64,000 bases of DNA from Parcubacteria group bacterium Licking1014_17 (GCA_007376485.1 VMGJ01000003.1:17252-81251); one strand, 5' to 3'; shown: positions 1,710 to 60,357, numbered from the stretch's first letter. Numbers and translations: made by a program. Notes: generated by a model not told the origin, from the sequence alone.

Positions 1710-3122
1710 ATGACGAAAAATGAAAAGATCAAAGAGCAGTTTGATAGATTAGCCGACAAAAGGGATTACTGGAAAAATAAAAATCGTTTCTATTACAGCG
1801 TTCTTGAAAGTTTCGTCTCTTTTTTGGTGCCTCAAAATAAACGAGTGCTTGAAGTTGGTTGCGGGACCGGCGATCTTCTGGCAAAATTAAGGCCGAGCCA
1901 TGGCGTGGGTATAGATATAAGCTCGAGAATGGTTGAAATAGCGCGCAGAAAATACCCAGATGGGAATTTGGCTTTCCGGGTAAAAAATGTATCTGAATTA
2001 TCGGAGAAATTCGATTATATCGTGGTATCGGATACAATCGGTTATTTGGATGATGTTGAGGATTTTTTTAGGCAACTACGAAAACTCATTGAGCCGAACG
2101 TACGAGTGGTAATTACCCAATACAGCCAATTATGGGAACCAGTGTTTAATTTGGCATCAGTTGTCAGGATGAGAATGCCTTCGCCAGACCAGAATTGGCT
2201 GTCAAAAAATGATATAGAAAATTTTTTGAGTATCGCCGGGCTTGAAGTTATTAAAAAAGGATCAAAAATTCTCATCCCAAAATACATCCCACTTTTATCG
2301 AAAATATCCAATAGATACCTCGTAAATTTGCCAATTTTTAAGTCTCTCGGAACGGTAAATTATTTCGTTGCCAGACCGGTCTTGTTCAACAAAATACCCA
2401 ATCCCTCGGTTTCGATAATAGTTCCGGCACGTAATGAAGTCGGAACAATAATAGACATAGTTAACGAATTGCCGCAAATCGGGAAAAATACTGAAATTAT
2501 TTTTATCGAGGGTCATTCTACCGACAACACGCTCGATGAGATAAAAAAAGCTTTAGCCATCAAAATTCAGGGTAAATCAATACGCTATGCGGTCCAGGAT
2601 GGCAAGGGCAAGGGCGATGCTGTCAGAAAGGGTTTTGATATGGCTACCGGCGATATATTGGTAATTTACGATGCCGATATGACCGTCCCGCCAAAGGAAG
2701 TAGAAAAATTTTACAGGCTGATAGCTGAAGGATGCTGTGATTTTGCCAATGGTTCCAGGTTGGTTTACCCAATGGAAAAGCAATCAATGAGAACCCTAAA
2801 CTACATTGGTAATAAATTTTTCAGCATTGTATTCAGCTGGCTTTTGGAACAGAAGATAAAGGATACTCTTTGCGGTACCAAGGCGCTTTGGAAAAGAGAC
2901 TACGAGGAAATAAAGAGAAACAGAAAATTTTTCGGCAATTTCGATCCATTCGGAGATTTTGACCTGCTTTTCGGCGCGGCAAAGATAAACTTAAAAATTA
3001 TAGATGTGCCTGTCCATTATCGCGATAGAAAGTACGGCGCCACCAATATCAGTCGGTGGAAGCATGGGTGGTTATTGCTGAAAATGGCTTTTTTTGCCAT
3101 GAAAAAAATTAAATTTATCTAA
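1710..3122 (+). CDS. bifunctional class I SAM-dependent methyltransferase / family 2 glycosyltransferase
   Basis: The N-terminal half carries the SAM motif I VLEVGCGTGDLL. The C-terminal half has the GT2 signature (SIIVPARNE, DGKGKGDAV, YDADMT). Single uninterrupted 470-aa ORF. Confidence 0.7.
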   Translation: MTKNEKIKEQFDRLADKRDYWKNKNRFYYSVLESFVSFLVPQNKRVLEVGCGTGDLLAKLRPSHGVGIDISSRMVEIARRKYPDGNLAFRVKNVSELSEKFDYIVVSDTIGYLDDVEDFFRQLRKLIEPNVRVVITQYSQLWEPVFNLASVVRMRMPSPDQNWLSKNDIENFLSIAGLEVIKKGSKILIPKYIPLLSKISNRYLVNLPIFKSLGTVNYFVARPVLFNKIPNPSVSIIVPARNEVGTIIDIVNELPQIGKNTEIIFIEGHSTDNTLDEIKKALAIKIQGKSIRYAVQDGKGKGDAVRKGFDMATGDILVIYDADMTVPPKEVEKFYRLIAEGCCDFANGSRLVYPMEKQSMRTLNYIGNKFFSIVFSWLLEQKIKDTLCGTKALWKRDYEEIKRNRKFFGNFDPFGDFDLLFGAAKINLKIIDVPVHYRDRKYGATNISRWKHGWLLLKMAFFAMKKIKFI

Positions 3123-3123
3123 T

Positions 3124-3798
3124 ATGGAAAGTAGGGATCATTTTGATGCCATAGCCGCAGATTATGATTTTTGGAAAAAAAAGAATTGGTATTACTATGA
3201 AAATCTAAAGAAGATTTTCATAGTAATAATTCCCGAGGGATCAAAAGTACTCGAGATAGGTTGTGGTACGGGCGACATCTTGGCGTCGCTTAAGCCACAA
3301 CAAGGGTTAGGAATCGACATCAGTTACAAAATGGTAGAACTAGCCAACTTGAAATATAAATCCAATAAAAATTTATCTTTCGAAGCAAGGGATATAACAA
3401 AGACAAATGAATTGTTGAATTATCCCTACATTTTAATGGTTGATGTCCTGGAGCACATAGAGAATCTGCAAGACTTTTTCCGACATCTGAATAAAATTAC
3501 ATTAAGCGCTTCAAAAATAATAATCTCCGTGGCGAATCCTTTATGGGAACCTATTCTTTCAATCGCTGAAAAATTAAAACTAAAAATGCCCGAAGGACCT
3601 CACAAAAGGTGGCGATTAAGTGATTTAGAAAATTGGTTTAAAAATTCGGGGTTTTCTATCGTTGATACAAATTATCGCCTATTGATTCCCAAAAAAATAC
3701 CGGCAGCGGACTTTATAAACGCGCGTTTCTATAAACTATCCCTACTGAACCGGCTGGGAATGATCAAATATTGGATATTGAAAAAAAACATTCACTAG
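3124..3798 (+). CDS. class I SAM-dependent methyltransferase
   Basis: VLEIGCGTGDILASL motif I, a paralog of the N-terminal domain of the preceding gene. Starts 2 nt after the upstream stop. Confidence 0.7.
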   Translation: MESRDHFDAIAADYDFWKKKNWYYYENLKKIFIVIIPEGSKVLEIGCGTGDILASLKPQQGLGIDISYKMVELANLKYKSNKNLSFEARDITKTNELLNYPYILMVDVLEHIENLQDFFRHLNKITLSASKIIISVANPLWEPILSIAEKLKLKMPEGPHKRWRLSDLENWFKNSGFSIVDTNYRLLIPKKIPAADFINARFYKLSLLNRLGMIKYWILKKNIH

Positions 3799-3811
3799 GA
3801 AAGAAATTTTT

Positions 3812-6301
3812 CTACTTTTCCGAGGCAGAGACTGACACTATTGTGTTGTTTTTTAAAAACAAAAATAATAATGTCCCAAATATTATTATGCCTATAATCC
3901 CAAACATAAGATTAATGGCACCCGGCTGATCTTGGTATTTAATTTCAACGATACCCGAACCCTCAGGAATTAAAACACCAAGATATGTAACGTTGCCCAA
4001 AAAAGTTTTCAAAGGTTGTGATGGTGGTACATTGCCATCGCCCCAAAATGCTTTCCAGTATTTATCATATGTTACTGGGAGAATCAGTATGCCTGGTAAA
4101 TCGTTATTTTTGATTTCAATCAATCTGTATCCATCGTCCTTTTTCAAAATTTTAAGTTGCGGAAAATGTTTTGAAATCGTTTCTTGGTTTTTCAAAACCG
4201 GTTCGGTTACTATGGCGAATTCATTGGGATTCCAGTTTGAACTAAAGAAATAAGAAAGCGCTTCATTTCTTTCCGTGATTAATTTTTCCTTACGGACAAA
4301 AGTATATTCCGGATAGTTGGTTTTTCGCTGCCAGAGAGATAGTCGATCCGCCGTGAATAATTTTTCCCACTCGGGGTTACGGATAATTAGGTCTTCGGAA
4401 CCTATTACGGTATTAACCCCATTAAGAACGAAGTAGCGGTTAGTAGCCTCCGAAAATTTAATACTCGGCTCGCTCATTCTGAGAGTCCCCAGGTCATTAT
4501 TTAGATAAGCAACGCTTTTCTTGAATTCATCAAACTTTACGGATGGGTCCAGATTTTTTTCAAAAATAAAACGATGGTAATTAAAAAGATCCGCATAAGA
4601 ACTATACATGGGGTTACGATAGCCGGTTATCGTGGAAAGTCCTAGTTGCAGAGGGCTGTTCTGGTGTACTCTCGCCCCTTTCGGTGTTTGTATCAATGCA
4701 ACTCGATCAATTTCCGGATATTTTTTGACCAAGCTTCCAAACTCGGTTTCCGGATAAAATAATTTGCTTGAATTAATGGCAAATGCCACCGGTGCCGCGC
4801 GTAAAAATAATCGCGCGAAGGAGGGAATTATCAAACTGAGTACAATCAGAAAAGTGGCAATGCTTTTTACCAGTCCTTGATTTGCCTCGGGGTTTTTACG
4901 GCTCAAAATAAACATCCCTAGCAAAAAAATCGCCGAGCTCGCGGAAATATAAATTGCTTCAATTAATATCTGGCGATGGCGAAGGTATCTGAAAACTGCA
5001 AAAACTGGAATAAAGACCACCATATATAACAAGGCGACCCCAATAATCCACTGAGCTCTTTTGCTTAATTGAAACTCCCCCCTTATTAGACTTCGCAAGG
5101 CATAGACGGTGGCAAAACTACCAAGCAAAAAAAACAAACCGGACGCGCGTATTGAAGTTTCTTCCCTAAAAGGACTGCCGATAATAACACTCAGAATAAA
5201 TTGGGTAATTCCGGTAAAATACAGAAGCCAAAAAAGAACCATCGTTGTGTAACCGCGATACCGTCTCCAAAATACATAAATACCGATGAAAAACAGAATC
5301 AAAAAAACTGGACCGGGGCTGAATACGCCGGCTGTGTTAGATCCATAAAGACCATAAAATTGTGAATTCCCGAAAAGAACACTGGTCAACTTGCGGTGGA
5401 ATTTAATCGGTTCGTAGCCAATCCATCCCAAGGGATCAAGGGCATAGTCCTTATGCTTTAACAACTCCGAAAGACTGAGATCGATATTTAGCTTGTTTGA
5501 CACGGAGAGAAACGACAAATGCCTTTCCAGAGAAAAATTTAAAACCAAAGCGGTCGCTCCAAACAAAATTCCAGTGACTATCAGCATAACCAAATACCTC
5601 TTTTTTTCGGCGGCAAAAAAATAGCCGACCCCCAATAATACAAAACATAAGCCAGCATACAAGTACAACTGGAAAAAGGCGGAAAGTAAAATACAAAAAA
5701 ATCCGGCTGTTGCCAGAAAAATAAACAGCCTTTTTCTGAAATAAAAATAAAACTGCACCATTCCTAACGTCGCCATTTCGTAACCGATAAGCGACATATT
5801 GTAGGCATCACCAAGAAAAAAATAAGAACACGTAATAGATAAAAATCCGAAAATAACAGAATAAAATATCTCAAATTTTAGAGAACGGGCTATCAGATAA
5901 CCCAAGGTAAAACTGATAAATAAGTATGCCAGCGCGGAAAAATTGGCACTTGAAGTAGTTGGTAAAAATTTATTGAAAAGACGGGTTAAGGTATGGGCAT
6001 TACCGGTATATCCCGCCGTAATCGGATAGCCGTTCATCACTCTTTCCGTATACGAATTCTGGTAGGAATTTTTGGCAAGATAATCAATTTCACCGGCAAT
6101 GAAATTGCTCTCAAAAATATAATCACCATCGCGCTCTTGGCTGCAATTCACCGGAGGATTCAACGACGACCAGGGATAATAACCTCGGCAATAAATCTGA
6201 TCCACCGGCAAAAATGTTTTGCCGGTTAGGTGCAAAACCGTACCAAACAGAGACAAAACAACAGCAAATAAAAATAAAAAAATAATTTCTTTTCTATACA
6301 T
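3812..6301 (-). CDS. YfhO-like large membrane protein (putative GT-C-type glycan transferase/polymerase)
   Basis: 829 aa. Many TM helices in the first ~450 aa, then a soluble domain, then a single C-terminal TM helix. This is the typical YfhO-family architecture. Overlaps the downstream GT2 gene by 8 nt. Confidence 0.5.
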   Translation of the reverse strand: MYRKEIIFLFLFAVVLSLFGTVLHLTGKTFLPVDQIYCRGYYPWSSLNPPVNCSQERDGDYIFESNFIAGEIDYLAKNSYQNSYTERVMNGYPITAGYTGNAHTLTRLFNKFLPTTSSANFSALAYLFISFTLGYLIARSLKFEIFYSVIFGFLSITCSYFFLGDAYNMSLIGYEMATLGMVQFYFYFRKRLFIFLATAGFFCILLSAFFQLYLYAGLCFVLLGVGYFFAAEKKRYLVMLIVTGILFGATALVLNFSLERHLSFLSVSNKLNIDLSLSELLKHKDYALDPLGWIGYEPIKFHRKLTSVLFGNSQFYGLYGSNTAGVFSPGPVFLILFFIGIYVFWRRYRGYTTMVLFWLLYFTGITQFILSVIIGSPFREETSIRASGLFFLLGSFATVYALRSLIRGEFQLSKRAQWIIGVALLYMVVFIPVFAVFRYLRHRQILIEAIYISASSAIFLLGMFILSRKNPEANQGLVKSIATFLIVLSLIIPSFARLFLRAAPVAFAINSSKLFYPETEFGSLVKKYPEIDRVALIQTPKGARVHQNSPLQLGLSTITGYRNPMYSSYADLFNYHRFIFEKNLDPSVKFDEFKKSVAYLNNDLGTLRMSEPSIKFSEATNRYFVLNGVNTVIGSEDLIIRNPEWEKLFTADRLSLWQRKTNYPEYTFVRKEKLITERNEALSYFFSSNWNPNEFAIVTEPVLKNQETISKHFPQLKILKKDDGYRLIEIKNNDLPGILILPVTYDKYWKAFWGDGNVPPSQPLKTFLGNVTYLGVLIPEGSGIVEIKYQDQPGAINLMFGIIGIIIFGTLLFLFLKNNTIVSVSASEK

Positions 6302-51959: not shown

Positions 51960-52096
51960 GCGACATAAATGACAAAATTACTATGTCATAGTGACAAAAA
52001 CATTTATGTCACGATATATGACACAGTGACACAATTAGATTGCGACATAAATGACAAATTGACGTGTCACTATGACATAATTGTCATTTATGTCGC
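51960..52096. promoter_or_regulatory. dense array of TGTCA/GCGACA-type repeats (3 copies of a 16-17-bp unit plus three TGTCA-Nx-TGACA palindromes)
   Basis: GCGACATAAATGACAA at 51960-51975 and 52042-52057, and its reverse complement at 52081-52096. TGTCAtagTGACA at 51985-51997. TGTCAcgatataTGACA at 52006-52022. TGTCActaTGACA at 52065-52077. Confidence 0.55.
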
Positions 52097-52608
52097 TATA
52101 GGTTGTCTATCTTCCATATTTTGTCACCTTTGACAAATATGATATTGACGCTTATATCGGAAGAAACTTTATATATGTAAGTGGCGCTCTTGTCGTCCTC
52201 CTTTTTTAAGAGCCACCCGGCTCTCGCCTTTTCAAATTCTGCTATAAGTTTATCCGTTATCCCCTTGTCTTCGCTGGCTATAAACGTTTTTTCCCAGCTT
52301 TCCTGCTTGGATGTCACAAAATAACGGCTCGCAAGTTTAAAATCCTTGCTCTTCAAAGCATCCATAAATAGGTCATAAGTTTCCTCCGGCGTAGCGCCAC
52401 CGATGATATCACCGCTGGCAATAATCGGTTCAGAACCATTTTCTCCCGCGGTTTTATCGCCCTGTATTTTTTTCAATATTCCGGAGAAGTTCAACATACC
52501 CAAAATTGCCGATAGAGCAACGACTCCAAAAATAATGGTGATTATCCAATTTTTACGGAAAAACCCATTGCTCCTTCTGGAGTCGCCAGATATTGCCGGG
52601 TTGTTCAT
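52096..52608 (-). CDS. small membrane-anchored protein (N-terminal TM + ~130-aa extracytoplasmic domain), unknown function
   Basis: 170-aa ORF. Hydrophobic helix WIITIIFGVVALSAILGML. Shares an operon with the upstream regulator gene. Confidence 0.5.
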   Translation of the reverse strand: MNNPAISGDSRRSNGFFRKNWIITIIFGVVALSAILGMLNFSGILKKIQGDKTAGENGSEPIIASGDIIGGATPEETYDLFMDALKSKDFKLASRYFVTSKQESWEKTFIASEDKGITDKLIAEFEKARAGWLLKKEDDKSATYIYKVSSDISVNIIFVKGDKIWKIDNL

Positions 52609-52632
52609 CGATCTAATTTTAACATTACGGAA

Positions 52633-53265
52633 TTAACTCGGCAATCGCGGGATGAAGTAAAACACGCTTTTACCCTGAACTTCCTTCAAAATCACGTTAT
52701 TTTCCAGTAATTCGGAGATTTTTCTCTGGATTGTTCTCCTGCTTATATTTTTAAATTCGGTGTAAACTTCCGAGTTCTGTACCCTCCCTTTTTTAGAAAT
52801 AAAATCAATTATTTTATCCTGCAAATCGCTGGGGGCCCGCCCTCTTTTTCTATTTGCCATACTTTTTTTTATCGTCTTAACCGGTTTATTTTCAGAGATA
52901 TCTTTTCTGGCATCAATTTTTTTCGCTTTTCTCGGAGTAATATTCTTGGCCGGAGAGGATATTACAAGCTTCAAAAGCAATAAATCTTTTTCAATAATCA
53001 TTGTTTGGGACAGGGTTTCGGAAAATAAATGCCGCATTATATACATAACCGATAGGCAGTGATCTAGATAATAACCGATTGATTTCGAGGAAACTTCGTC
53101 AATTTTACCGTTTTCGGTAACAAAAATTGCCGAAATATCGGCAATTTTTCTGGATTCCGTAAAACAAATTTCGCTAAAAAACTTATCAGGCAAGTTTTTG
53201 GCTAAAGTCTCAAGCTCGACGGCCAGATTAATGACAAGGCGCAAGGATGAGTTGTTATCGCTCAT
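52633..53265 (-). CDS. DNA-binding regulator with C-terminal winged-helix HTH (start uncertain: 53265 ATG or 53319 GTG)
   Basis: C-terminal IIDFISKKGRVQNSEVYTEFKNISRRTIQRKISELLENNVILKEVQGKSVFYFIP is a clear wHTH. It is preceded by a basic linker. The N-terminal ~120 aa are of unknown fold. The gene is flanked on both sides by TGTCGC/TGTCA repeat arrays. Confidence 0.55.
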   Translation of the reverse strand: MSDNNSSLRLVINLAVELETLAKNLPDKFFSEICFTESRKIADISAIFVTENGKIDEVSSKSIGYYLDHCLSVMYIMRHLFSETLSQTMIIEKDLLLLKLVISSPAKNITPRKAKKIDARKDISENKPVKTIKKSMANRKRGRAPSDLQDKIIDFISKKGRVQNSEVYTEFKNISRRTIQRKISELLENNVILKEVQGKSVFYFIPRLPS

Positions 53266-53343
53266 TACATAGACATATAGCACAACGCGACACCGCGTCA
53301 ATGCTTGTCGCAATAACACCCATTGTGTCGCGATGTCATTATT

Positions 53344-53398
53344 TGTCGCTATTATGTCGCGATATTGTCGCTATGTTGTCGCGATTCTGTCACTATCT
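53344..53398. promoter_or_regulatory. five tandem 11-bp direct repeats (iteron-like; consensus TGTCGC(G/T)AT(A/T)n)
   Basis: TGTCGC(or TGTCAC) recurs at 53344, 53355, 53366, 53377 and 53388 with exact 11-bp phasing. Two further copies lie at 53306 and 53326. Located between the htrA stop and the regulator start. Confidence 0.6.
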
Positions 53399-54664
53399 GG
53401 AGCTTAATGTCACAGTGACATTCATTTGGCTACCTTGTCGCAGAACTAATAGTGTCACAGTATCACCGCTGCTGTATTTTTGTATTAAGGCGCTAAGAGG
53501 ATTATCGGCTGTCACCTTCGTGCCATTAACTTCAAGAATTATGTCGTTCTCCTTAATGCCGGCTTTATCCGCCGGAGAACCGGGTGCCACGGCTATTTCA
53601 GTCGCGTTCGGGCCCTTGATGACCAAAGCTCCATAATCCACGGCCAGATTATTGCTGTCTTTGATATCCGGGGTAATCATCACATATCTTACGCCAAGGT
53701 AGGCATAAGTAATTTTGCCGGTTTTTGCCACCTGTTGTATATCTTTTTTGGCAATATTAATGGGTGTCGCAAAGCCGATATTCTGAGCCCCGCTGACAAT
53801 AGCCGTGTTTATCCCCATTACTTCTCCGTTCAAGTTGAGCAGCGGACCGCCGGAATTTCCGGGATTAATAGCGGCATCTGTCTGGATTAGCTGCGACAAG
53901 CTTTCCGAAGAACCGCCGGCGCTATCGGATGCCGTTATGGAACGGGAAAGTCCTGAAACCACGCCCCTGGACACGGTGTTGGAAAATTGCCCCAGCGCGT
54001 TTCCGATAGCTATGGCGGTTTGTCCTATCTGAACCTTGGTTGAATCGGCTAATGGCAGGGCTTTTAAGCCGGATACCGGTATTTTAATCACGGCGACATC
54101 ATTAACGGAATCCATGGCTAAAATTTGGGCGGTAAACTCCCTGCCGTCGCTCAAAATAACCGTGAAAGCGGCGCCGTCGATATTGACAACGTGCCTGTTG
54201 GTTAAAATCATACCGTCGGAACTCACGACAAATCCGGTTCCAGCGGCTACCTGCTGTTTTTGTGTTTGGGGCTGTGTCGGAGTTTGGGGCTGATTTTGGC
54301 ACTGATTGCCGAAAAACTGTCTGAAGAATGGGTCAGAACAAAGGTCTTGGAGTGGATAAGTTCCATTTTGGACTACCTGCAGATCTTTTGTTGCGATTAT
54401 GCTGACAACCGAAGGGCTTGACTGCTTAACAACATTTATAATTTTTGCCTCATCGCTTGTGCCGGGTACATAAGCTGGCGGTTGCTGGGTTGCCAAAGAA
54501 GAAGCCGGACCCGAACTCTGAATGTTGTTAGGAATTGTCATTAGAGCCGCTTCGTATCCGAAAATGGCTCCAAAAATCCCCGATATTATAATGCTGGCCA
54601 CTATTGCGCTTATAACAGTATTTTTTTTAACAAAGTTTGCTATTTTTTCTATTATTTTCTCCAT
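53393..54664 (-). CDS. htrA: HtrA/DegP-family periplasmic serine endoprotease with PDZ domain
   Basis: N-terminal TM anchor. The trypsin fold shows TNRHVV (His), a D, and the GNSGGPLLNLNGEVMGINTAI catalytic Ser motif. C-terminal PDZ-like domain. Confidence 0.85.
   Translation of the reverse strand: MEKIIEKIANFVKKNTVISAIVASIIISGIFGAIFGYEAALMTIPNNIQSSGPASSLATQQPPAYVPGTSDEAKIINVVKQSSPSVVSIIATKDLQVVQNGTYPLQDLCSDPFFRQFFGNQCQNQPQTPTQPQTQKQQVAAGTGFVVSSDGMILTNRHVVNIDGAAFTVILSDGREFTAQILAMDSVNDVAVIKIPVSGLKALPLADSTKVQIGQTAIAIGNALGQFSNTVSRGVVSGLSRSITASDSAGGSSESLSQLIQTDAAINPGNSGGPLLNLNGEVMGINTAIVSGAQNIGFATPINIAKKDIQQVAKTGKITYAYLGVRYVMITPDIKDSNNLAVDYGALVIKGPNATEIAVAPGSPADKAGIKENDIILEVNGTKVTADNPLSALIQKYSSGDTVTLLVLRQGSQMNVTVTLSSR
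53407..53421. promoter_or_regulatory. 15-bp perfect palindrome ATGTCACaGTGACAT (same half-site family), inside the 3' end of htrA
   Basis: Direct reading; the half-site TGTCAC matches the repeat family at 51960-52096. Confidence 0.45.
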
Positions 54665-54809
54665 AGATAATGGCTTTTTTAACCAAAAAGCCGGTTATTT
54701 AACCAGTAATCGGCCCTATGTATTACATTATATAATATAACGAAAAAAGAAATCAAAAAGTTTTGGGGGCGGAGCGAACCCCGCTCAAAATTTTCTGTGA
54801 AAATTTTGA

Positions 54810-54901
54810 GCAGGATACTTGAATTAGTCCGAACCGCTTTCGCCGCCTGCGGCGGCGAGGAAAACCCCCCGCGAAATTCTGAAAATGCGGCGAAGCCGCG
54901 C
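54810..54901. repeat. inverted repeat R1, ~92 bp, G+C-rich; partner at 55891-55982
   Basis: The reverse complement of 54810-54901 aligns with 55891-55982. The inner ~60 bp are identical and the outer ~30 bp about 85% identical. The flanking 12-bp-stem hairpin at 54783-54811 is not repeated. Confidence 0.8.
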
Positions 54902-54943
54902 CGATGACAATTTCAAGTTTTTCTTTTGGCGGCAAATTCTTTG

Positions 54944-54989
54944 TTCTTTGAATTATAAAAAAGAGGGGGTCGCTTTCGCAAACCCCCTC
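54944..54989 (-). terminator. rho-independent terminator for the 55013..55675 gene
   Basis: On the minus strand: GAGGGGGT-loop-ACCCCCTC hairpin followed by CTTTTTTAT. Confidence 0.6.
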
Positions 54990-55012
54990 GGTTGAGAAGA
55001 TAGATCTCCGCT

Positions 55013-55675
55013 TCATTGAATACGGCCGGTGAGAAATCCTTTTGCGTTCTCATCCCAGAGAATCTTTCGCGGAGTGGTTTTGGTGACACCAGCTTGCGTC
55101 ACCACACCATCAAGTCGTCCGTTGAAGAAAATCGGAACTCCTTCTCGTAGAGCAGACGAACTCACAGTGTCATTCGCTCGAACGCCGTTGAGAAGCTGGC
55201 TCACACCCCGATTGACGAGATGAATTCCGCCTTTCTCGATCCAGGTTCCGCAGTCATAGGTATGAAGCGAAATCGGTTCGAGAACTTCCTCGCGCATGAG
55301 GTTCTCGCCGGTGATGACGAGAAAATCGGCATCGCTCGGCTGAATGGGAACCTGCTCGGTAACTGGTCCACGAAATAGGCGGTTCCTCTTTACTTCCTGG
55401 AAGCCAGGATGACGCACCGCCGATCCAAATGCGATGACCGCCACGATGTCATCGAGTGGAACGAGGGTGTGATTCACTTTCCATCCCGTCACCAACTTGT
55501 AGAGGTCGGCGAGGTTGATGTAGAAATCTGTGATTGCAGAATTTTGGAAGAATCCTCCGCCCGGATGAACGTATGCTTTTCCGTTCGGGAAATACAGTCT
55601 TCCAAGGCGTGTTGCCTCGAAATACTTCGTGAAATCATCCATGTGCAGAACGGTCTCAACTGCTGTGCTTTTCAT
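55013..55675 (-). CDS. putative Pol-beta-superfamily nucleotidyltransferase, horizontally acquired cargo gene (the ORF extends to 55714, but the start at 55675 is preceded by AAAGGAG)
   Basis: AFGSAVRHPG...PSDADFLVITG fits the hG[GS]x(n)Dh[DE]h nucleotidyltransferase motif (compare kanamycin NTase GSLARGE...SDIDLVVI), with an insertion. Codon usage and G+C are clearly higher than in flanking genes. A strong SD lies 7 nt upstream of the second ATG. Confidence 0.45.
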   Translation of the reverse strand: MKSTAVETVLHMDDFTKYFEATRLGRLYFPNGKAYVHPGGGFFQNSAITDFYINLADLYKLVTGWKVNHTLVPLDDIVAVIAFGSAVRHPGFQEVKRNRLFRGPVTEQVPIQPSDADFLVITGENLMREEVLEPISLHTYDCGTWIEKGGIHLVNRGVSQLLNGVRANDTVSSSALREGVPIFFNGRLDGVVTQAGVTKTTPRKILWDENAKGFLTGRIQ

Positions 55676-55749
55676 CGGTTTTCTCCTTTCAAGGAACTTG
55701 TATTTAGGCCACATTGCCTACGCTTGTAAGAATATAGCATATATGATGC

Positions 55750-57675
55750 TTGAAGTCAATAGTAAACAAAAAATCAGCATCTTTGCTGAAAATTATCTTA
55801 AAAAATCCTTATGAAAATTTTTCTTTTCTGCTTCTACAAAATATGGTTCGAGCCGATGTTTTTAACGGGTTCTTTTGCGGTTTTGATTCGTGCGGCTCCG
55901 CCGCCTTTCCGGATTTTCGCGGGGGGACTTCCTCGCCGCCGCAGGCGGCGAAAGCGGTTCGGACTAATTCAAGTATCCTGCACCACGTTGGAAAAGTCAA
56001 TGCCTCGCCCCGCCTTCGGCGGGTCTCGGCGACCAAATCGTACGGATTTTTCGGGGTAAAAAGAAATTCCCGATTCCGGATTGAAGCTCAACTTGTTGAG
56101 CTCAAAGAATTTGCCGCCAAAGAAAAACTTGAAATTGTCGCTTCCTTTCAGGAAGCCAAAACCGCAAAAGAACCCGGGCGAATTAAATTCGCAGAAATGT
56201 TGTCATTGATTGAGAGAGGGAAAGCAGACGGGATAATTTCATGGCATCCGGATCGTCTCGCAAGAAATTCTGTGGATGGCGGAAAGATTATTCACTTTGT
56301 TGATCGCGGCTTGATTCGTTCCCTCAAATTTCCCTGCTTCTGGTTTGAACCGACACCACAAGGATTATTCATGCTGAACATTGCTTTCGGACAAAGCAAG
56401 TATTTTGTAGACAATTTGCGAGAGAATGTAAAAAGAGGTTTGCGGCAGAAAATCAGAAATGGAGTATGGCCAAGTTGGGCTCCAATTGGCTACACTAACA
56501 ACCCCAAAACGCGCGGTATTGATATTGATAGCGACAAAGCCCCTAAGGTAAAGAAATTGTTTGAAATGTATGCCACCGGAGAATACTCTCTCAACATCCT
56601 CGCAAATTGGTGTGAGAAAAAGAAACTGCTCACTAACGCCGGAAACAAAATATCATTAAGCAATGTTCAGCATATTCTCCAAAACCCTTTCTACATTGGG
56701 TTGATGAGATACAAAGGGGAAATTTTTGAGGGAACACACGAACCGTTAATCTCAAAGAAACTTTTTGATAAATGTCAGGAAGTTATGGTAAAGCGTGGGA
56801 AAGTGAGGCCAGACAGGAAACACTATTTTGCTTTTCTTGGCCTGATGAAATGCGCCTCGTGTGGTTGTTCAATTACGGCTCAATACGCAAAAGGAAATGG
56901 TGGTATTTACACTTACTATCGGTGTACAAAAAAGCGAGGCAAGTGCCAAGAAAAGTATCTTGATGAAAAACAGCTTTTAACACAAATTAAAAACTTCCTG
57001 CAAAAAGTTTCTTTGTCGAGCCAAGACACCGAGAAAGTTTTGGCGGCATTAGGCACAGAAGAAACACAAGCGAAACAACAAGCACAAAGTGAGGCGGTAA
57101 ATCTAAAAGAGCAGTTAGCTCAAATTGAAACAAAGCTCCAGAAATTGCTGGACGTATATCTCGATGATGCACTTACTCAAAAAGAATACGCCACCAAAAA
57201 AGATGTCCTCATTTCCCAAAAGGTCGAGTTAAACGAAAAAATCACCGACTTTGAGCAAAAAGGGGTGTCTTGGCTCGAACCGGCTCGTGAGTTTGTAAAA
57301 TCCTTGAATCAAGCCGCTAATTTACTTGAATCAGAAAATCTTTCCGAAATGACAACATTTCTGAAAAACATCGGCTCGAACCATATTTTACGGAATCGGG
57401 AATTTCTTTTTACCCCGAAAAATCCGTACGATTTGGTCGCCGAGACCCGCCGAAGGCGGGGCGAGGCATTGACTTTTCCAACGTGGTGGTCGTGTTCTGC
57501 CATTGAACCACACCCGCGTTGCCAAGGGGGTTTCGGCGAAACTTCGCCGAAACCCCCTTGGCTGAATTTTTATTTTTTATTTATCCAGTCGGTAACGGAC
57601 TGCCAGAATTTACCCCATGCGTCCGGTTGCCCGGCGCTTTTTTCAATCACGCTCGTTTCTTTATTTTTTGAGTAA
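55750..57675 (+). CDS. large serine recombinase (resolvase/invertase-type catalytic domain + recombinase domain + zinc ribbon + coiled coil). True start and stop are uncertain because the ORF runs through repeats S, R1', R2 and R2'
   Basis: WHPDRLARN (the catalytic DRLxR of serine recombinases), GTHEPLISKKLF, the zinc ribbon CASCGCSITAQY...YYRCTKKRGKC and the coiled-coil C-terminus all match large serine recombinases (A118/Bxb1/TnpX-like). The first in-frame ATG/GTG/TTG before the catalytic region is at 55843 (inside S) or 55750. There is no canonical start just upstream of the putative catalytic Ser (KRNS at aa 104-107 or RVS at aa 91-93). Confidence 0.75.
   Translation: MKSIVNKKSASLLKIILKNPYENFSFLLLQNMVRADVFNGFFCGFDSCGSAAFPDFRGGTSSPPQAAKAVRTNSSILHHVGKVNASPRLRRVSATKSYGFFGVKRNSRFRIEAQLVELKEFAAKEKLEIVASFQEAKTAKEPGRIKFAEMLSLIERGKADGIISWHPDRLARNSVDGGKIIHFVDRGLIRSLKFPCFWFEPTPQGLFMLNIAFGQSKYFVDNLRENVKRGLRQKIRNGVWPSWAPIGYTNNPKTRGIDIDSDKAPKVKKLFEMYATGEYSLNILANWCEKKKLLTNAGNKISLSNVQHILQNPFYIGLMRYKGEIFEGTHEPLISKKLFDKCQEVMVKRGKVRPDRKHYFAFLGLMKCASCGCSITAQYAKGNGGIYTYYRCTKKRGKCQEKYLDEKQLLTQIKNFLQKVSLSSQDTEKVLAALGTEETQAKQQAQSEAVNLKEQLAQIETKLQKLLDVYLDDALTQKEYATKKDVLISQKVELNEKITDFEQKGVSWLEPAREFVKSLNQAANLLESENLSEMTTFLKNIGSNHILRNREFLFTPKNPYDLVAETRRRRGEALTFPTWWSCSAIEPHPRCQGGFGETSPKPPWLNFYFLFIQSVTDCQNLPHASGCPALFSITLVSLFFE
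55838..55863. repeat. 26-bp repeat S (AAAATATGGTTCGAGCCGATGTTTTT); inverted copy at 57364-57389
   Basis: Exact reverse-complement match. The left copy lies 27 bp outside R1'. The right copy abuts R2'. Confidence 0.75.
55891..55982. repeat. inverted repeat R1' (partner of 54810-54901), abutting R2
   Basis: See R1. The R1/R1' pair brackets the nucleotidyltransferase gene. Confidence 0.8.
55982..56079. repeat. inverted repeat R2, 98 bp; perfect inverted partner at 57391-57488
   Basis: The reverse complement of 57391-57488 is identical to 55982-56079 over the full 98 bp. The R2/R2' pair brackets the serine-recombinase core, and both copies lie inside the recombinase reading frame. Confidence 0.85.
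57364..57389. repeat. repeat S' (inverted copy of 55838-55863)
   Basis: Exact match in reverse complement. Confidence 0.75.
57391..57488. repeat. inverted repeat R2' (perfect partner of 55982-56079)
   Basis: See R2. Confidence 0.85.
57521..57583 (+). terminator. strong rho-independent terminator 3' of the recombinase gene
   Basis: 20-bp perfect stem GCCAAGGGGGTTTCGGCGAA-ac-TTCGCCGAAACCCCCTTGGC followed by TGAATTTTTATTTTTTATTT. Confidence 0.8.
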
Positions 57676-57944
57676 ATAATTACAACGTGCTCGTCGGGCT
57701 TTTTGTAGTTTAAATACAATCTGGCAAGTTTATCAAGCCGCTGGTCAATTTCTCCTGAAACTGTCGGCGAAGGCGATGTTTCCTCCACTTGAGTTAGTTC
57801 CGTAACTTTTTTATTTAAGCTTTCAAGTTTTCTGCCGGCGATTACCGCCGAAGGTATTATTCTATACAAAGAAACAAACATAAAACCGGCTACAAGCAAC
57901 AGCCCTATAGTCAACCAGCCCGATTGCAATAATTTTCTGAACAT
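57570..57944 (-). CDS. small membrane-anchored protein, unknown function
   Basis: 124 aa with the N-terminal TM helix LTIGLLLVAGFMFVSLY. Overlaps the next gene's stop by a few nt. Confidence 0.45.
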   Translation of the reverse strand: MFRKLLQSGWLTIGLLLVAGFMFVSLYRIIPSAVIAGRKLESLNKKVTELTQVEETSPSPTVSGEIDQRLDKLARLYLNYKKPDEHVVIIYSKNKETSVIEKSAGQPDAWGKFWQSVTDWINKK

Positions 57945-57946
57945 AA

Positions 57947-58414
57947 TTAACGGATGCGGTTGATGGTTTCCGTGATTCCGTCAGGATCCTTCACTTTTTT
58001 TATAGTCAGCGGATTATCGGATACAGTTCTCAAAACAACATCGCCGTAATCAAAAACTGTTGGCATCAGCCCTTCTTTGCGGTAGCCGACCTCGGAAATG
58101 TCCTTGTACAAAAGTTCAACCGTGGCTCTTGAAAACATGCCTTTGCGCTCGCTTCTGACTACCCGTTGGTTAGTCAGCCATAAGACGTTGTCGCCTCCGG
58201 AAAAAGTCTTGTAGATAACCATTATCAAAGCAAGGCTAACCGCAATTATAACAACCTGATTCCAGTAGCCGAAGAAATCAAAACTAGTCATAAATCTCAA
58301 TACAAAAAGCAGGACGATAATCAAAATCCAGAAAATATACGTTGGCAGGAGAAAAATCCAGTGGCGAGACGTGACCTTTATTAATTTTTCGTTTTGCCGT
58401 AGAATTAGTTTCAT
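57947..58414 (-). CDS. membrane-flanked bacterial PH-domain protein (YdbS/bPH_2-like)
   Basis: Two N-terminal TM helices, then ...LWLTNQRVVRSERKGMFSRATVELLYKDISEV, typical of the bPH_2 family. Confidence 0.5.
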   Translation of the reverse strand: MKLILRQNEKLIKVTSRHWIFLLPTYIFWILIIVLLFVLRFMTSFDFFGYWNQVVIIAVSLALIMVIYKTFSGGDNVLWLTNQRVVRSERKGMFSRATVELLYKDISEVGYRKEGLMPTVFDYGDVVLRTVSDNPLTIKKVKDPDGITETINRIR

Positions 58415-58554
58415 AAGTTTGTGATTAATTATTTATGACCAAGAGAACAATCAAGATTATAACCATCGCGATGTCCATCATGACTATTTTTGCGATGATT
58501 GCTTTTACCCTCGTCGCGGTTTTGAGACTCTACTAATCGAATTATAACCTAAAG

Positions 58555-60357
58555 CTACTTTTTTAGCATCTGGATAAAAACCGAATGGGGGATGTTCACT
58601 TTCCCCGATTCTTTCATGCGCTTTTTGCCCTTTTTCTGCTTTTCAAGCAGTTTTTTCTTGCGGGTTATGTCGCCGCCGTAAAGATAACCGGTTACGTCTT
58701 TTCTCATGGCGCTCAATGTTTCCCTGGCTACAATTTTTCCGCCGATTGCCGCCTGAACGGAAACCGCGAAAAGCTGGCGGGGGAGTATCTTTTTCAATTT
58801 TTCCACAATCCGCCGGCCTTCGTCGTAAGCGTTTTTTTCCGGCACGACTCTTGAAAACGGCTCTACTCTCTCGCCCGCTATTAAAATATCAAGGCGGACC
58901 AGATTCGCCTCCTCCCAGCCGTCTTCCTCGTAATCCATCGATGCGTAGCCGGAGCTGATACTTTTCAGTTTGTCGTAAAATTCCGTAATAATTTCCGAAA
59001 GCGGTACGCGATACTCCAGAATAATCACCTCATGCCCAAGATAGCTCGTGGCGATATAACGGCTTCGGATTTCCGACATCAGATTCATCAAGGCGCCCAG
59101 ATAACTTGAAGGGCTTAAAAGTTTAAGTTTAATCATCGGCTCCTCTATTTTTTTAATTAAATTGGGGTCGGGGATTAATGAAGCCGATCGGATTTTAACC
59201 GCTTCGCCGTTATTGGTGATTACATGGTATTCAACCGACGGCGTGGAAATTATAAGCGACAAATCAAACTCCCGGCGCAGGCGTTCGCTCACGATTTCCA
59301 CGTGCAGCATCCCCAGAAATCCCAGCCGGAATCCCCTGCCGAGCGCCGGCGAAGATTCGGGTTCGTATGTCAGCGAAGCATCGGTAAGTTTTAATTTTCC
59401 CAAGGCGTCTCTTAGCCCGTCATAGCTTTCGCTGTTCTCGGGATAAAAACTGGCAAAAACCATCGGCTTCGGTTCTTTGTAGCCCGGCAATGCCAGTGAA
59501 GCCCGCTCGTTTTCATTAAAATCGCCGGCTATGGTGTCGCCCACCCTGACCTGCCCGACATTTTTCAGCCCGGTAGCGATGTATCCGATGTCTCCCGCTT
59601 TGATTTCCGAATCCTTCCTCAATTCCGGCGCGAAATAGCCGACCTCGATCACTTCGCCGCCCGCCCGTGAAGACACCAGTTTTATCGTATTGCCCGCTTT
59701 CAAACTCCCGTCAAAAACGCGCGCGTAAGCAATCACCCCCTTGAACTTATCAAAAACGGAATCAAAAATTAGGGCGCGAAAAGTTTTTATTTCCGATTCC
59801 CGCGGGGGCGGAACTTTTTCAATCACTTCTTGGAGAACTTTTTCCACCCCTTCTCCGCTTTTGGCGGAAATTCTAAGAATATCCTTTGATTCTATTCCGG
59901 TAAGCACGTTAATTTCTTCTTCAACTTCTTTGACTCTGACGTTCACGAGGTCAATTTTATTTATAACGGGAATAATCACCAGCCCCTGCTTTTTCGCGTG
60001 GCTGTAATTCGCCAGCGTCTGCGCCTGGACCCCTTTTGTCGCGTCAACCAGAAGAATCGCGCCCTCAACGGCGGCTAACGACCGCGAAACCTCGTATGAA
60101 AAATCTACATGCCCGGGGGTATCTATGAGGTTTAATATATATCCCTCGGTGCCAGTAGAATAGCGCATCCTCACCGGCTGGAGTTTAATGGTAATCCCCC
60201 GCTCCCGCTCAAGTTCCATTGAATCAAGATACTGGGCGTGCATCGCCCTTTTTTCAATCGTCCCCGTCAATTCCAAAAACCTGTCCGCCAGAGTGGACTT
60301 GCCATGGTCAATGTGCGCTATAATGCAGAAGTTTCGAATTCTTTCGGAATCGTTCAC
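58555..60357 (-). CDS. lepA: elongation factor 4 (LepA)
   Basis: The N-terminus IRNFCIIAHIDHGKSTLADRFLE, DTPGHVDF and the characteristic LepA C-terminal domain ...RKKKLLEKQKKGKKRMK are all present. Confidence 0.92.
   Translation of the reverse strand: MNDSERIRNFCIIAHIDHGKSTLADRFLELTGTIEKRAMHAQYLDSMELERERGITIKLQPVRMRYSTGTEGYILNLIDTPGHVDFSYEVSRSLAAVEGAILLVDATKGVQAQTLANYSHAKKQGLVIIPVINKIDLVNVRVKEVEEEINVLTGIESKDILRISAKSGEGVEKVLQEVIEKVPPPRESEIKTFRALIFDSVFDKFKGVIAYARVFDGSLKAGNTIKLVSSRAGGEVIEVGYFAPELRKDSEIKAGDIGYIATGLKNVGQVRVGDTIAGDFNENERASLALPGYKEPKPMVFASFYPENSESYDGLRDALGKLKLTDASLTYEPESSPALGRGFRLGFLGMLHVEIVSERLRREFDLSLIISTPSVEYHVITNNGEAVKIRSASLIPDPNLIKKIEEPMIKLKLLSPSSYLGALMNLMSEIRSRYIATSYLGHEVIILEYRVPLSEIITEFYDKLKSISSGYASMDYEEDGWEEANLVRLDILIAGERVEPFSRVVPEKNAYDEGRRIVEKLKKILPRQLFAVSVQAAIGGKIVARETLSAMRKDVTGYLYGGDITRKKKLLEKQKKGKKRMKESGKVNIPHSVFIQMLKK

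Follow-up and report, generated by a model that had tools for sequence, protein, structure and literature searches.

A defunct, probably tRNA-targeting serine recombinase element in a Parcubacteria genome, with an internal inverted copy of its joined ends

Introduction

A 64,000-nt stretch of the genome of Parcubacteria group bacterium Licking1014_17 (GCA_007376485.1, VMGJ01000003.1:17252-81251; the whole stretch is called the window here) contains, at 54810-57488, a large serine recombinase (LSR) gene and a small cargo gene, each bracketed by its own pair of ~100-nt inverted repeats (R2/R2' and R1/R1', respectively). What kind of DNA has such a layout, and what might the repeats be for? A preliminary description of the locus had offered a pair of invertible or excisable gene cassettes and a novel small mobile element among its possible readings. 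Our comparison with related loci suggests, with a probability of roughly 85%, that the block is an integrated, defunct copy of a family of 2.5-3.1 kb tRNA-targeting LSR elements of the Candidate Phyla Radiation (CPR; Patescibacteria), each with one variable cargo gene. CPR genomes are tiny, and little has been described of how these bacteria gain genes.

The identity of the element and its mode of integration are well supported, and what we propose on the use of the shorter satellite repeats and of the internally repeated joined ends (R1'|R2) is more conjectural. The general kind, a serine-integrase element at a tRNA gene, is known, and the layout appears to be undescribed: the literature searched held no description of it, though coverage was incomplete and this is no proof of novelty.

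Results

Repeat searches and BLAST of the block against the window located the R1/R1', R2/R2' and S repeats where the preliminary description had seen them (Table 1). All are inverted pairs: R2 and R2' are identical over 98 nt (E = 4e-51), R1 and R1' match over 101 nt at 88% identity (54810-54910 and 55881-55981; 90 nt at 92%; E = 1e-29), and S' and S match over 26 nt at 100% (E = 4e-8). No extra copy of R1, R2 or S was found in the 64-kb window, so these repeats are local and far beyond chance. Since, in addition, the related loci that we fetched always pair them with an LSR gene, a dispersed repeat of the repetitive extragenic palindromic or miniature inverted-repeat transposable element (MITE) type, which the preliminary description had considered, was ruled out. 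Three inverted pairs had been overlooked: A'/A (97%) and B'/B (100%), whose first members are reverse complements of parts of the LSR gene, and C/C' (16 nt, 100%). The outer ends of the element do not pair with each other, each having its partner inside the element (R1' for R1, R2 for R2'), and they have in common only a weak pseudo-symmetric motif; a transposon, insertion sequence (IS) or MITE with terminal inverted repeats was rejected on this basis. An Rfam search of 52000-60000 at permissive E-values returned two chance-level matches only. The block had also been called rich in G+C; its 45.3% does exceed the 41.5% of the window but lies below htrA (46.9%) and lepA (48.7%), so the contrast is weak and we dropped the idea of a G+C island.

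The same segment order is shared by two unrelated metagenome contigs, one with the window's cargo (97% amino acid identity) in different flanks (L001) and one with a different cargo of 274 aa between R1 and R1' (L002). A survey of one genome per GTDB species yielded at least 447 encoding loci, 80 of which were fetched. Self-comparison of the fetched loci gave R2/R2' pairs of ~100 nt wherever upstream DNA sufficed, mostly at 98-100% identity, and R1/R1' pairs of ~90-106 nt with arms 700-1400 bp apart; shorter repeat pairs were likewise present. The full layout was kept in 41 of the 51 loci having an R2 pair and persisted where the LSR is just 56-63% identical to a full-length relative, P0002. 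One could suspect that the foldback is a chimeric join made by an assembler or by amplification, given that the window is a metagenome-assembled contig, that inverted segments with short junctions look like amplification chimeras and that the LSR gene appears broken at a repeat border. However, more than 40 contigs that unrelated studies and assemblers produced show the order R1, A', X, S', B', R1', R2, R2', and the arm sequences co-vary between loci, which makes such an artefact extremely improbable.

The suggestion of a novel small mobile element fits these data well: the same architecture lies beside many different tRNA genes in many genomes. Mobility is indicated by at least 13 target tRNA identities, by the same cargo in different flanks (L001) and by four genomes of the survey list that hold 2-3 copies. 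Several bins carry names from outside the CPR (Gammaproteobacteria for L007, L014, L020 and L049; Deltaproteobacteria for L075; Latescibacterota for L033; Woesearchaeota for L053), but these may be contaminated or mislabelled bins and not true hosts. Many recombinase contigs are only 1.7-3.4 kb long and many fetched loci stop at the element, probably because assemblies break at the 100-bp inverted repeats or because the element is multi-copy. In L002, a second, more distant LSR gene (1749-3467; 572 aa) lies 2 kb from the element beside a helix-turn-helix gene, with ~66% nucleotide similarity over its 5' part.

The ends of the element point to tRNA genes as its target. In ~50 of 60 loci, ARAGORN placed an opposite-strand tRNA gene that starts at the last ~5 nt of the LSR match, with at least 13 identities represented (Arg, Val, Lys, Phe, Ile, Leu, Glu, Ala, Asn, Gln, Met, Gly and Ser), and most LSR C-terminal tails past the TFPTW motif read as reverse-complemented tRNA. 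The left end opens, in 41 loci, with the same 3-8 nt that close the right end (for example TGGTGC, TGGTGG, TGGCTCCG, TGGCTG and TGGCGG); in reverse complement, this shared core equals the acceptor end of the neighbouring tRNA followed by CCA, and it co-varies with that acceptor end. The first ~30 nt of R1 correspond to a P' half-site of the attP type, in which the core G of the TGGTG side is followed by CAGGATACTTGAATTAGTCCGAAC with a T-loop mimic (variants include TAGTCCGAAC and TAGTTCGAAC). In 28 of 29 loci, the distance of this mimic from TGG exceeds that of the genuine T-loop by exactly 5 bp, a TCGAAC-type motif lying at +23 in R1 and at +18 in the tRNA. Rutherford et al. found the zinc-ribbon motif of attB shifted 5 bp toward the centre relative to attP (PMC3783163), and the offset between R1 and tRNA equals this shift. 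We conclude from these sequence relations that the end of R2' and the start of R1 probably serve as the P and P' arms of attP and that the element targets tRNA genes generically, at their 3' end.

The boundaries of the window copy agree with this placement: the left edge of R1 coincides with that in L001, L002 and 41 other loci, and the right edge of R2', with its terminal TGGTG (the reverse complement of tRNA ..CACCA), is common to 41 loci. Only a 30-nt remnant of the target tRNA gene adjoins it, however, whereas relatives have an intact tRNA at the equivalent position. About 45 nt of its 3' part are lost, and what is left most resembles a tRNA-Gly, namely the 5' end of the one that adjoins the L059 element. 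ARAGORN found no tRNA or tmRNA gene in the whole 64-kb window, and this stump is the only tRNA-like sequence noticed there. Strong hairpins stand just beyond both element ends (54767-54814 and 57521-57562, the right one a 19-bp stem followed by a T-run). The preliminary description took them for the block's own terminators; they lie outside the element, and we read them as host terminators around the former tRNA gene and not as element parts.

Table 1. Features of the element and of its right border in the window, with positions counted from the first nucleotide of the window
Feature	Start	End	Strand	Description
R1	54810	54905	+	Left element end; inverted repeat with 55886-55981
A'	54906	54943	+	Inverted copy of LSR codons ~29-41; adjoins R1 with no gap
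Hairpin and T-run	54963	54990	-	Likely cargo terminator; read from sequence
Cargo gene	55016	55675	-	Uncharacterised protein of 220 aa; stop codon 55013-55015
Cargo promoter-like site	55731	55759	-	TTGACT-17-TATATT, preceded by TG; consensus scan only
X	55811	55836	+	Arm of 30-nt inverted repeat; reverse complement of L002 5501-5526
S'	55838	55863	+	Inverted copy of LSR codons ~449-457; contains GGTTCGAGCC
B'	55866	55885	+	Inverted copy of LSR codons ~47-53; adjoins R1'
R1'	55886	55981	+	Inverted copy of R1
Sigma-70-like motif	55972	56000	-	TTGACT-17-GATACT over the R1'|R2 junction; toward cargo side
R2	55981	56078	+	Inverted copy of LSR 3' coding end and P arm; putative inverted attP copy together with R1'
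Deletion scar	56079	56079	+	~105 bp of relatives lost: X', ribosome-binding site, codons 1-20
LSR gene, 5'-truncated	56080	57488	+	Codon 21 to ..TFPTW end; Pfam and protein alignment
A	56103	56139	+	Partner of A', within LSR open reading frame
pal	56140	56156	+	17-nt hairpin/palindrome GCTTCC-TTTCA-GGAAGC, between A and B
B	56157	56176	+	Partner of B'
pal2	56178	56192	+	Hairpin GCGAAT-TAA-ATTCGC, between B and C
C	56192	56207	+	Partner of C'
C'	57348	57363	+	Adjoins S
S	57364	57389	+	Partner of S'; one base upstream of R2'
R2'	57391	57488	+	LSR 3' coding end (..RNREFLFTPKNPYDLVAE..TFPTW) and P arm; ends in TGGTG
Target tRNA remnant	57489	57518	-	30 nt; 5' acceptor strand and D arm only (GCGGGTGTGGTTCAATGGCAGAACACGAC)

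The recombinase gene places the element among the integrase-type LSRs. Family members are ~490 aa long with Recombinase and zinc-ribbon domains, and among solved structures they are related to the SPbeta and A118 integrases, the alignment extending through residue ~430. Among the candidates scored in a protein search, 6,502 were relatives, the best of them 72-92% identical and from many CPR lineages. The three profiles expected of an LSR all match the window copy (PF00239; PF07508, 1.3e-18; PF13408, 1.4e-8), which bears out the preliminary call, although the Resolvase match (PF00239) begins only at profile position 15. Alignment with full-length relatives (P0002, P0003 and P0004; 84-89% identical) accounts for this: codons 1-20 (MKYIIYARKSTEEDDRQVLS), with the catalytic serine, are missing and their position is taken by R2, so that the nucleophilic-serine resolvase domain found in relatives such as P0002 is lacking here. 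The deletion is deduced from L001 and L002, both of which have ~105 bp between R2 and the equivalent of 56080; it also removed X', the partner of X in the LSR leader, with which X forms a pair in L002 and seven other loci. Downstream, the open frame continues into host DNA up to 57675. R2' had been taken for a site beyond the recombinase core; instead, it combines one att arm with the conserved 3' end of the coding region. Two inverted pairs within the recombinase open reading frame (ORF), 56753-56767/57001-57015 and 57016-57030/57264-57278, are 98% and 88% paired across 33 elements; nucleotides around them are nearly invariant, third codon positions included, and both the right arm 57264-57278 and S contain GGCTCGAACC, a T-loop-like motif.

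Judged from its sequence, then, the window copy is dead: start codon and catalytic serine are gone, as are ~45 nt of the tRNA. The 105-bp deletion would leave it neither mobile nor able to invert DNA by its own enzyme, and the view of the locus as a fixed, degenerate remnant, which the preliminary description had set against its own proposals, holds in part: this copy is such a remnant, one that also destroyed a tRNA gene. PADLOC gave no defence-system match for the LSR or the cargo, and a phage origin was rejected on account of just two partial LSR matches in IMG/VR.

Between R1 and R1' lies a slot for one gene, which is hypervariable from element to element. The longest ORFs found there in 41 loci are nearly all mutually unrelated, usually lie on the strand opposite the recombinase and include S-adenosylmethionine (SAM) methyltransferases, PsbP-like proteins, NAD(P)HX dehydratase, NUDIX, radical SAM, MOSC and HNH proteins, and others. 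In L024 (~3760-3860), R1 stands beside R1' with no gene between them, an empty cargo slot. The window's cargo protein has 85 homologues, none of them named, and no Pfam match. The nucleotidyltransferase assigned to it earlier therefore has no profile behind it, but it does have support at the level of fold: a structure model (38 homologues; mean predicted local distance difference test score 84.5) has as best PDB matches the ANT(4') kanamycin nucleotidyltransferase, Hailong HalB and a nucleotidyltransferase-like protein, these Foldseek matches being weak (E 2.5e-3 to 2e-2; template-modelling score 0.27-0.31). Residues G84, S85, D115 and D117, which would fit the GS...DxD motif of the Pol-beta superfamily, are invariant among homologues. 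It is plausible that the cargo belongs to an uncharacterised family with a Pol-beta-type nucleotidyltransferase-like fold. A terminator site equivalent to that of the window's cargo gene was called in L002 at 4252-4229.

Long, near-perfect inverted repeats around each gene invite the thought that the LSR flips the R1-R1' cargo segment and its own R2-R2' segment as a phase-variation switch, and the maintained identity of the arms is what recombining arms would show. The orientation data speak against this. A' directly follows the distal R1 and B' directly precedes the proximal R1' in ~36 of 41 loci, where S' and X lie ~22 nt and ~50 nt further out from the proximal R1', and none of the 41 loci has A', B', S' and X in the direct (opposite) orientation; the LSR gene is, moreover, convergent on the tRNA in ~50 of 60 loci. 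L083 has the order that an R2/R2' inversion should give (LSR, then R2'R1-B-S-cargo(+)-A-R1'), but this contig breaks off at R2 and could equally be a mis-join through the 100-bp repeat; in L083 and L084, in both of which cargo lies downstream of the LSR gene, real inversion and mis-joining are indistinguishable. Since each gene has its promoter-like site inside its own segment, flipping would change little. With an integrase-type LSR that is catalytically dead in the window, a pair of invertible cassettes is very unlikely, and the earlier proposal of invertible or excisable cassettes finds no place in our reading. A Hin/Gin-type invertible segment or shufflon was rejected for the want of a second orientation, for an enzyme that is no small invertase and for the ~100-nt arms.

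The R1'|R2 junction in the middle of the element is an exact inverted copy of its right end joined to its left end. We scored covariation for the named pairs on an alignment of 33 elements, with shuffled and slid controls. Over all cells, 92.8% were paired, compared with 78.9% after shuffling (none of 500 shuffles reached the observed value) and 37-50% after sliding. R2:R2' were 99.3-99.9% paired with at most four pair types per column and almost no one-sided changes; S:S' were 96.8% paired with covariation, B:B' 96.4% and C:C' 91%, and B' tracks synonymous third-position changes in LSR codons 47-53. Both pal (95-97% paired) and pal2 (94%) showed compensatory changes, pal occurring as GCCTCTT/AAGAGGC, GCTTCC/GGAAGC and GCCTCGC/GCGAGGC, the last of which alters ASFQEA to ASLCEA. 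A further candidate repeat (56371-56386/56658-56673) was discarded, being only 61% paired across the family and so lineage-specific or a chance match. The arms behave like exact DNA copies.

The arms also abut one another almost without gaps. R1 runs into A' and B' into R1'; A, pal and B are contiguous in the gene, as are B, pal2 and C; and C' runs into S. Two nucleotides separate S' from B', and a single one separates R2 from X', X from S' and S from R2'. One strand could therefore fold into a three-way junction and a pair of four-way junctions that leave hardly any base unpaired, a fold in which, from the coordinates, R1'R2 would place both element ends side by side. Because the full pair set needs three bracket layers, this fold would be pseudoknotted.

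Such complementarity could act in RNA: the leader segments X, S', B' and R2 might pair with the LSR mRNA and halt recombinase synthesis. All four do complement the same-strand LSR transcript (in its 5' leader, at codons 47-53 and at its 3' end), and the conserved hairpins of the coding region show a few G:U states. However, G:T and A:C mismatches were equally frequent on either strand, leaving no RNA-strand signature; evolved RNA structures do not typically contain perfect 100-bp helices, the cargo gene separates R1 and A' from this leader, and Rfam gave no match. We accordingly regard a brake on translation as unlikely.

Alternatively, the layout may be a functionless relic of an ancient series of template switches, kept by gene conversion between arms and by descent. 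Several broken copies have breaks exactly at segment borders, as template switching would give: R2 is joined to the end of A in L044, R1 to B and on into the gene in L057, and R2-S'-C continues into the gene in L075. The internal core is deleted in L006 and L023, and L024, with its empty cargo slot, and the window's own 105-bp loss belong to the same series; this decay pattern fits template switching or recombination at repeats. The near absence of one-sided G:U states in arms that are exact DNA copies would also agree with a relic. Against it, B' and S', only 20-26 nt long, are 96-97% complementary and track synonymous changes, which gene conversion on its own could hardly bring about; compensatory changes maintain pal and pal2, in one case even though two amino acids had to change; and the full layout survives in 41 of 51 loci despite LSR divergence to 56%. 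A relic without function is thus rather doubtful.

The junction carries a sigma-70-like motif that points toward the cargo side and recurs in 41 of 42 elements as TTGnnn, a 17-bp spacer holding the core and a TAnnnT-type second hexamer, with a mean of 8.5 of 12 consensus matches (read from the R2' end into R1). At the chromosome junctions host DNA replaces one hexamer, so only the internal copy is complete. That the internal copy is a conserved regulatory region with the only intact junction promoter is, as far as sequence motifs can indicate, likely to be part of the answer.

Discussion

We propose that the LSR joins attP, made of the P arm at the R2' end and the P' arm at the R1 start around the 3-8 nt core, with an attB that would be the acceptor/T-arm end of essentially any tRNA gene. 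The core TGGTG would copy the tRNA 3' end (as the reverse complement of CACCA), and the P' arm would mimic the T-loop 5 bp further out. After integration, an intact tRNA should stand immediately before the element, facing an LSR gene that runs toward it; the route may lead through a circular intermediate. The internal R1'|R2 copy, which stands between two divergent genes, would keep an intact joined-ends sequence in the integrated element and, as the sole copy with both hexamers in that state, would fire toward the cargo side. Within one strand, its pairing with the two ends would bring these next to each other. Whether the role of the internal copy goes beyond that of a conserved regulatory region we judge at a little under even odds.

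Several observations weigh against this reading. A circle or alternative-integration junction, sought as S-N(180-210)-A' (that is, S-R2'-R1-A'), occurred in one of 86 fetched loci and in one contig of the Joint Genome Institute (JGI); both resemble tandem arrays, and no free circle was seen among the junction matches in the 86 fetched loci and the JGI contigs. For the window copy, neither a circle nor an empty target site, at which no search was aimed, came to light. Were a circle to carry two equal attP copies, integration via the internal one should produce a second arrangement; this is essentially absent, which has to be explained in some other way. A recombination directionality factor is not apparent, so excision is unexplained. 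Assemblies of metagenome-assembled genomes are prone to mis-joins across 100-bp inverted repeats. Hairpin-plus-T-run sites lie between the junction motif and the cargo gene's own promoter-like site, so the junction promoter may not drive the cargo and its transcript may be short. Finally, equal frequencies of G:T and A:C are compatible with pairing that acts in RNA, with pairing that acts in single-stranded DNA and with an effect of DNA copying only.

Two arrangements stand apart from the canonical order. L084 (1-4377) has a recombinase with cargo modules on both sides, and L087 (1-2475) has two elements head to tail with R2' joined to R1, which suggests insertion of one element beside another, or arrays.

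A bolder idea is that the repeat network allows the exact element circle to be closed from single-stranded DNA. R1:R1' and R2:R2' would pair within one strand (for example, DNA taken up in natural transformation), and R1'R2 would bring the end of R2' (3') up to the start of R1 (5') and keep both in place, as at the junction between Okazaki fragments, so that host flap removal and ligase could close the circle without an excision factor. The A:A', B:B', S:S', X:X', C:C', pal and pal2 junctions would lock the fold. Closure would recreate attP and the promoter, and integration through that copy would destroy the promoter. If so, a self-splinting element could establish itself from linear single-stranded DNA in any tRNA-bearing host, and the occurrence of 75-92% identical recombinases in many CPR lineages would be in keeping with this. 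We consider this full scheme improbable, at about the same level as the translational brake.

For CPR bacteria, the tRNA-targeting element family that we favour could matter in its own right. With over 6,500 related proteins and, among species-level genomes, at least 447 loci, it is abundant, and because each copy delivers one different gene, it may be a major route of single-gene gain in the CPR. An LSR that reads the universal T-loop and CCA end would find a target site in almost any genome, which may interest builders of integrase tools. The inverted joined-ends copy and the exactly abutting inverted gene fragments, for their part, call for a mechanism.

Among the closest known systems, the integrases of Listeria A118/LI and SPbeta (SprA) are sequence relatives and have the same set of Resolvase, Recombinase and zinc-ribbon domains, a short attL/attR core and a zinc-ribbon motif that lies 5 bp nearer the centre in attB than in attP. 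In contrast to those systems, the element measures ~2.7 kb with one cargo gene, has as its target no single locus but the generic 3' end of tRNAs of any kind, has one att arm within the recombinase ORF and no evident directionality factor, and holds an inverted full attP copy together with inverted gene fragments.

Promoters formed at circle junctions were reportedly described by Lyras and Rood in 2000 for Tn4451/Tn4453 (TnpX), and IS911 is said to behave likewise. As in those transposons and in IS circle junctions, the joined ends of our element would unite a -35 and a -10 hexamer from opposite ends; unlike Tn4451/Tn4453, it permanently carries an intact junction copy with a putative promoter, pointing away from the recombinase gene. 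Tycheposons are reportedly tRNA-associated, cargo-carrying islands, and share with the element a small size, a place beside tRNA genes and the shuttling of variable cargo in streamlined genomes. The element differs from them in its single-gene cargo, its recombinase lineage, its double inverted-repeat layout and its insertion at the very CCA end with a repeat of only 3-8 nt.

Folded single-strand sites are reportedly used by CTX phage attP(+) and integron attC, as Val et al. are said to have shown in 2005, and in the element, too, two inverted sequences on one strand could build a duplex recombination site. However, the recombinases there are of the tyrosine type and the arms add up to ~100 nt, and single-strand use by the element is conjecture on our part. 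Hin, Gin, Cin and the shufflons resemble it in having a serine recombinase gene next to DNA bracketed by inverted repeats, but theirs are small invertases acting on 26-34 bp sites, with both orientations present in populations, whereas the element combines an integrase-type LSR with ~100-bp arms and a single orientation in ~36 loci.

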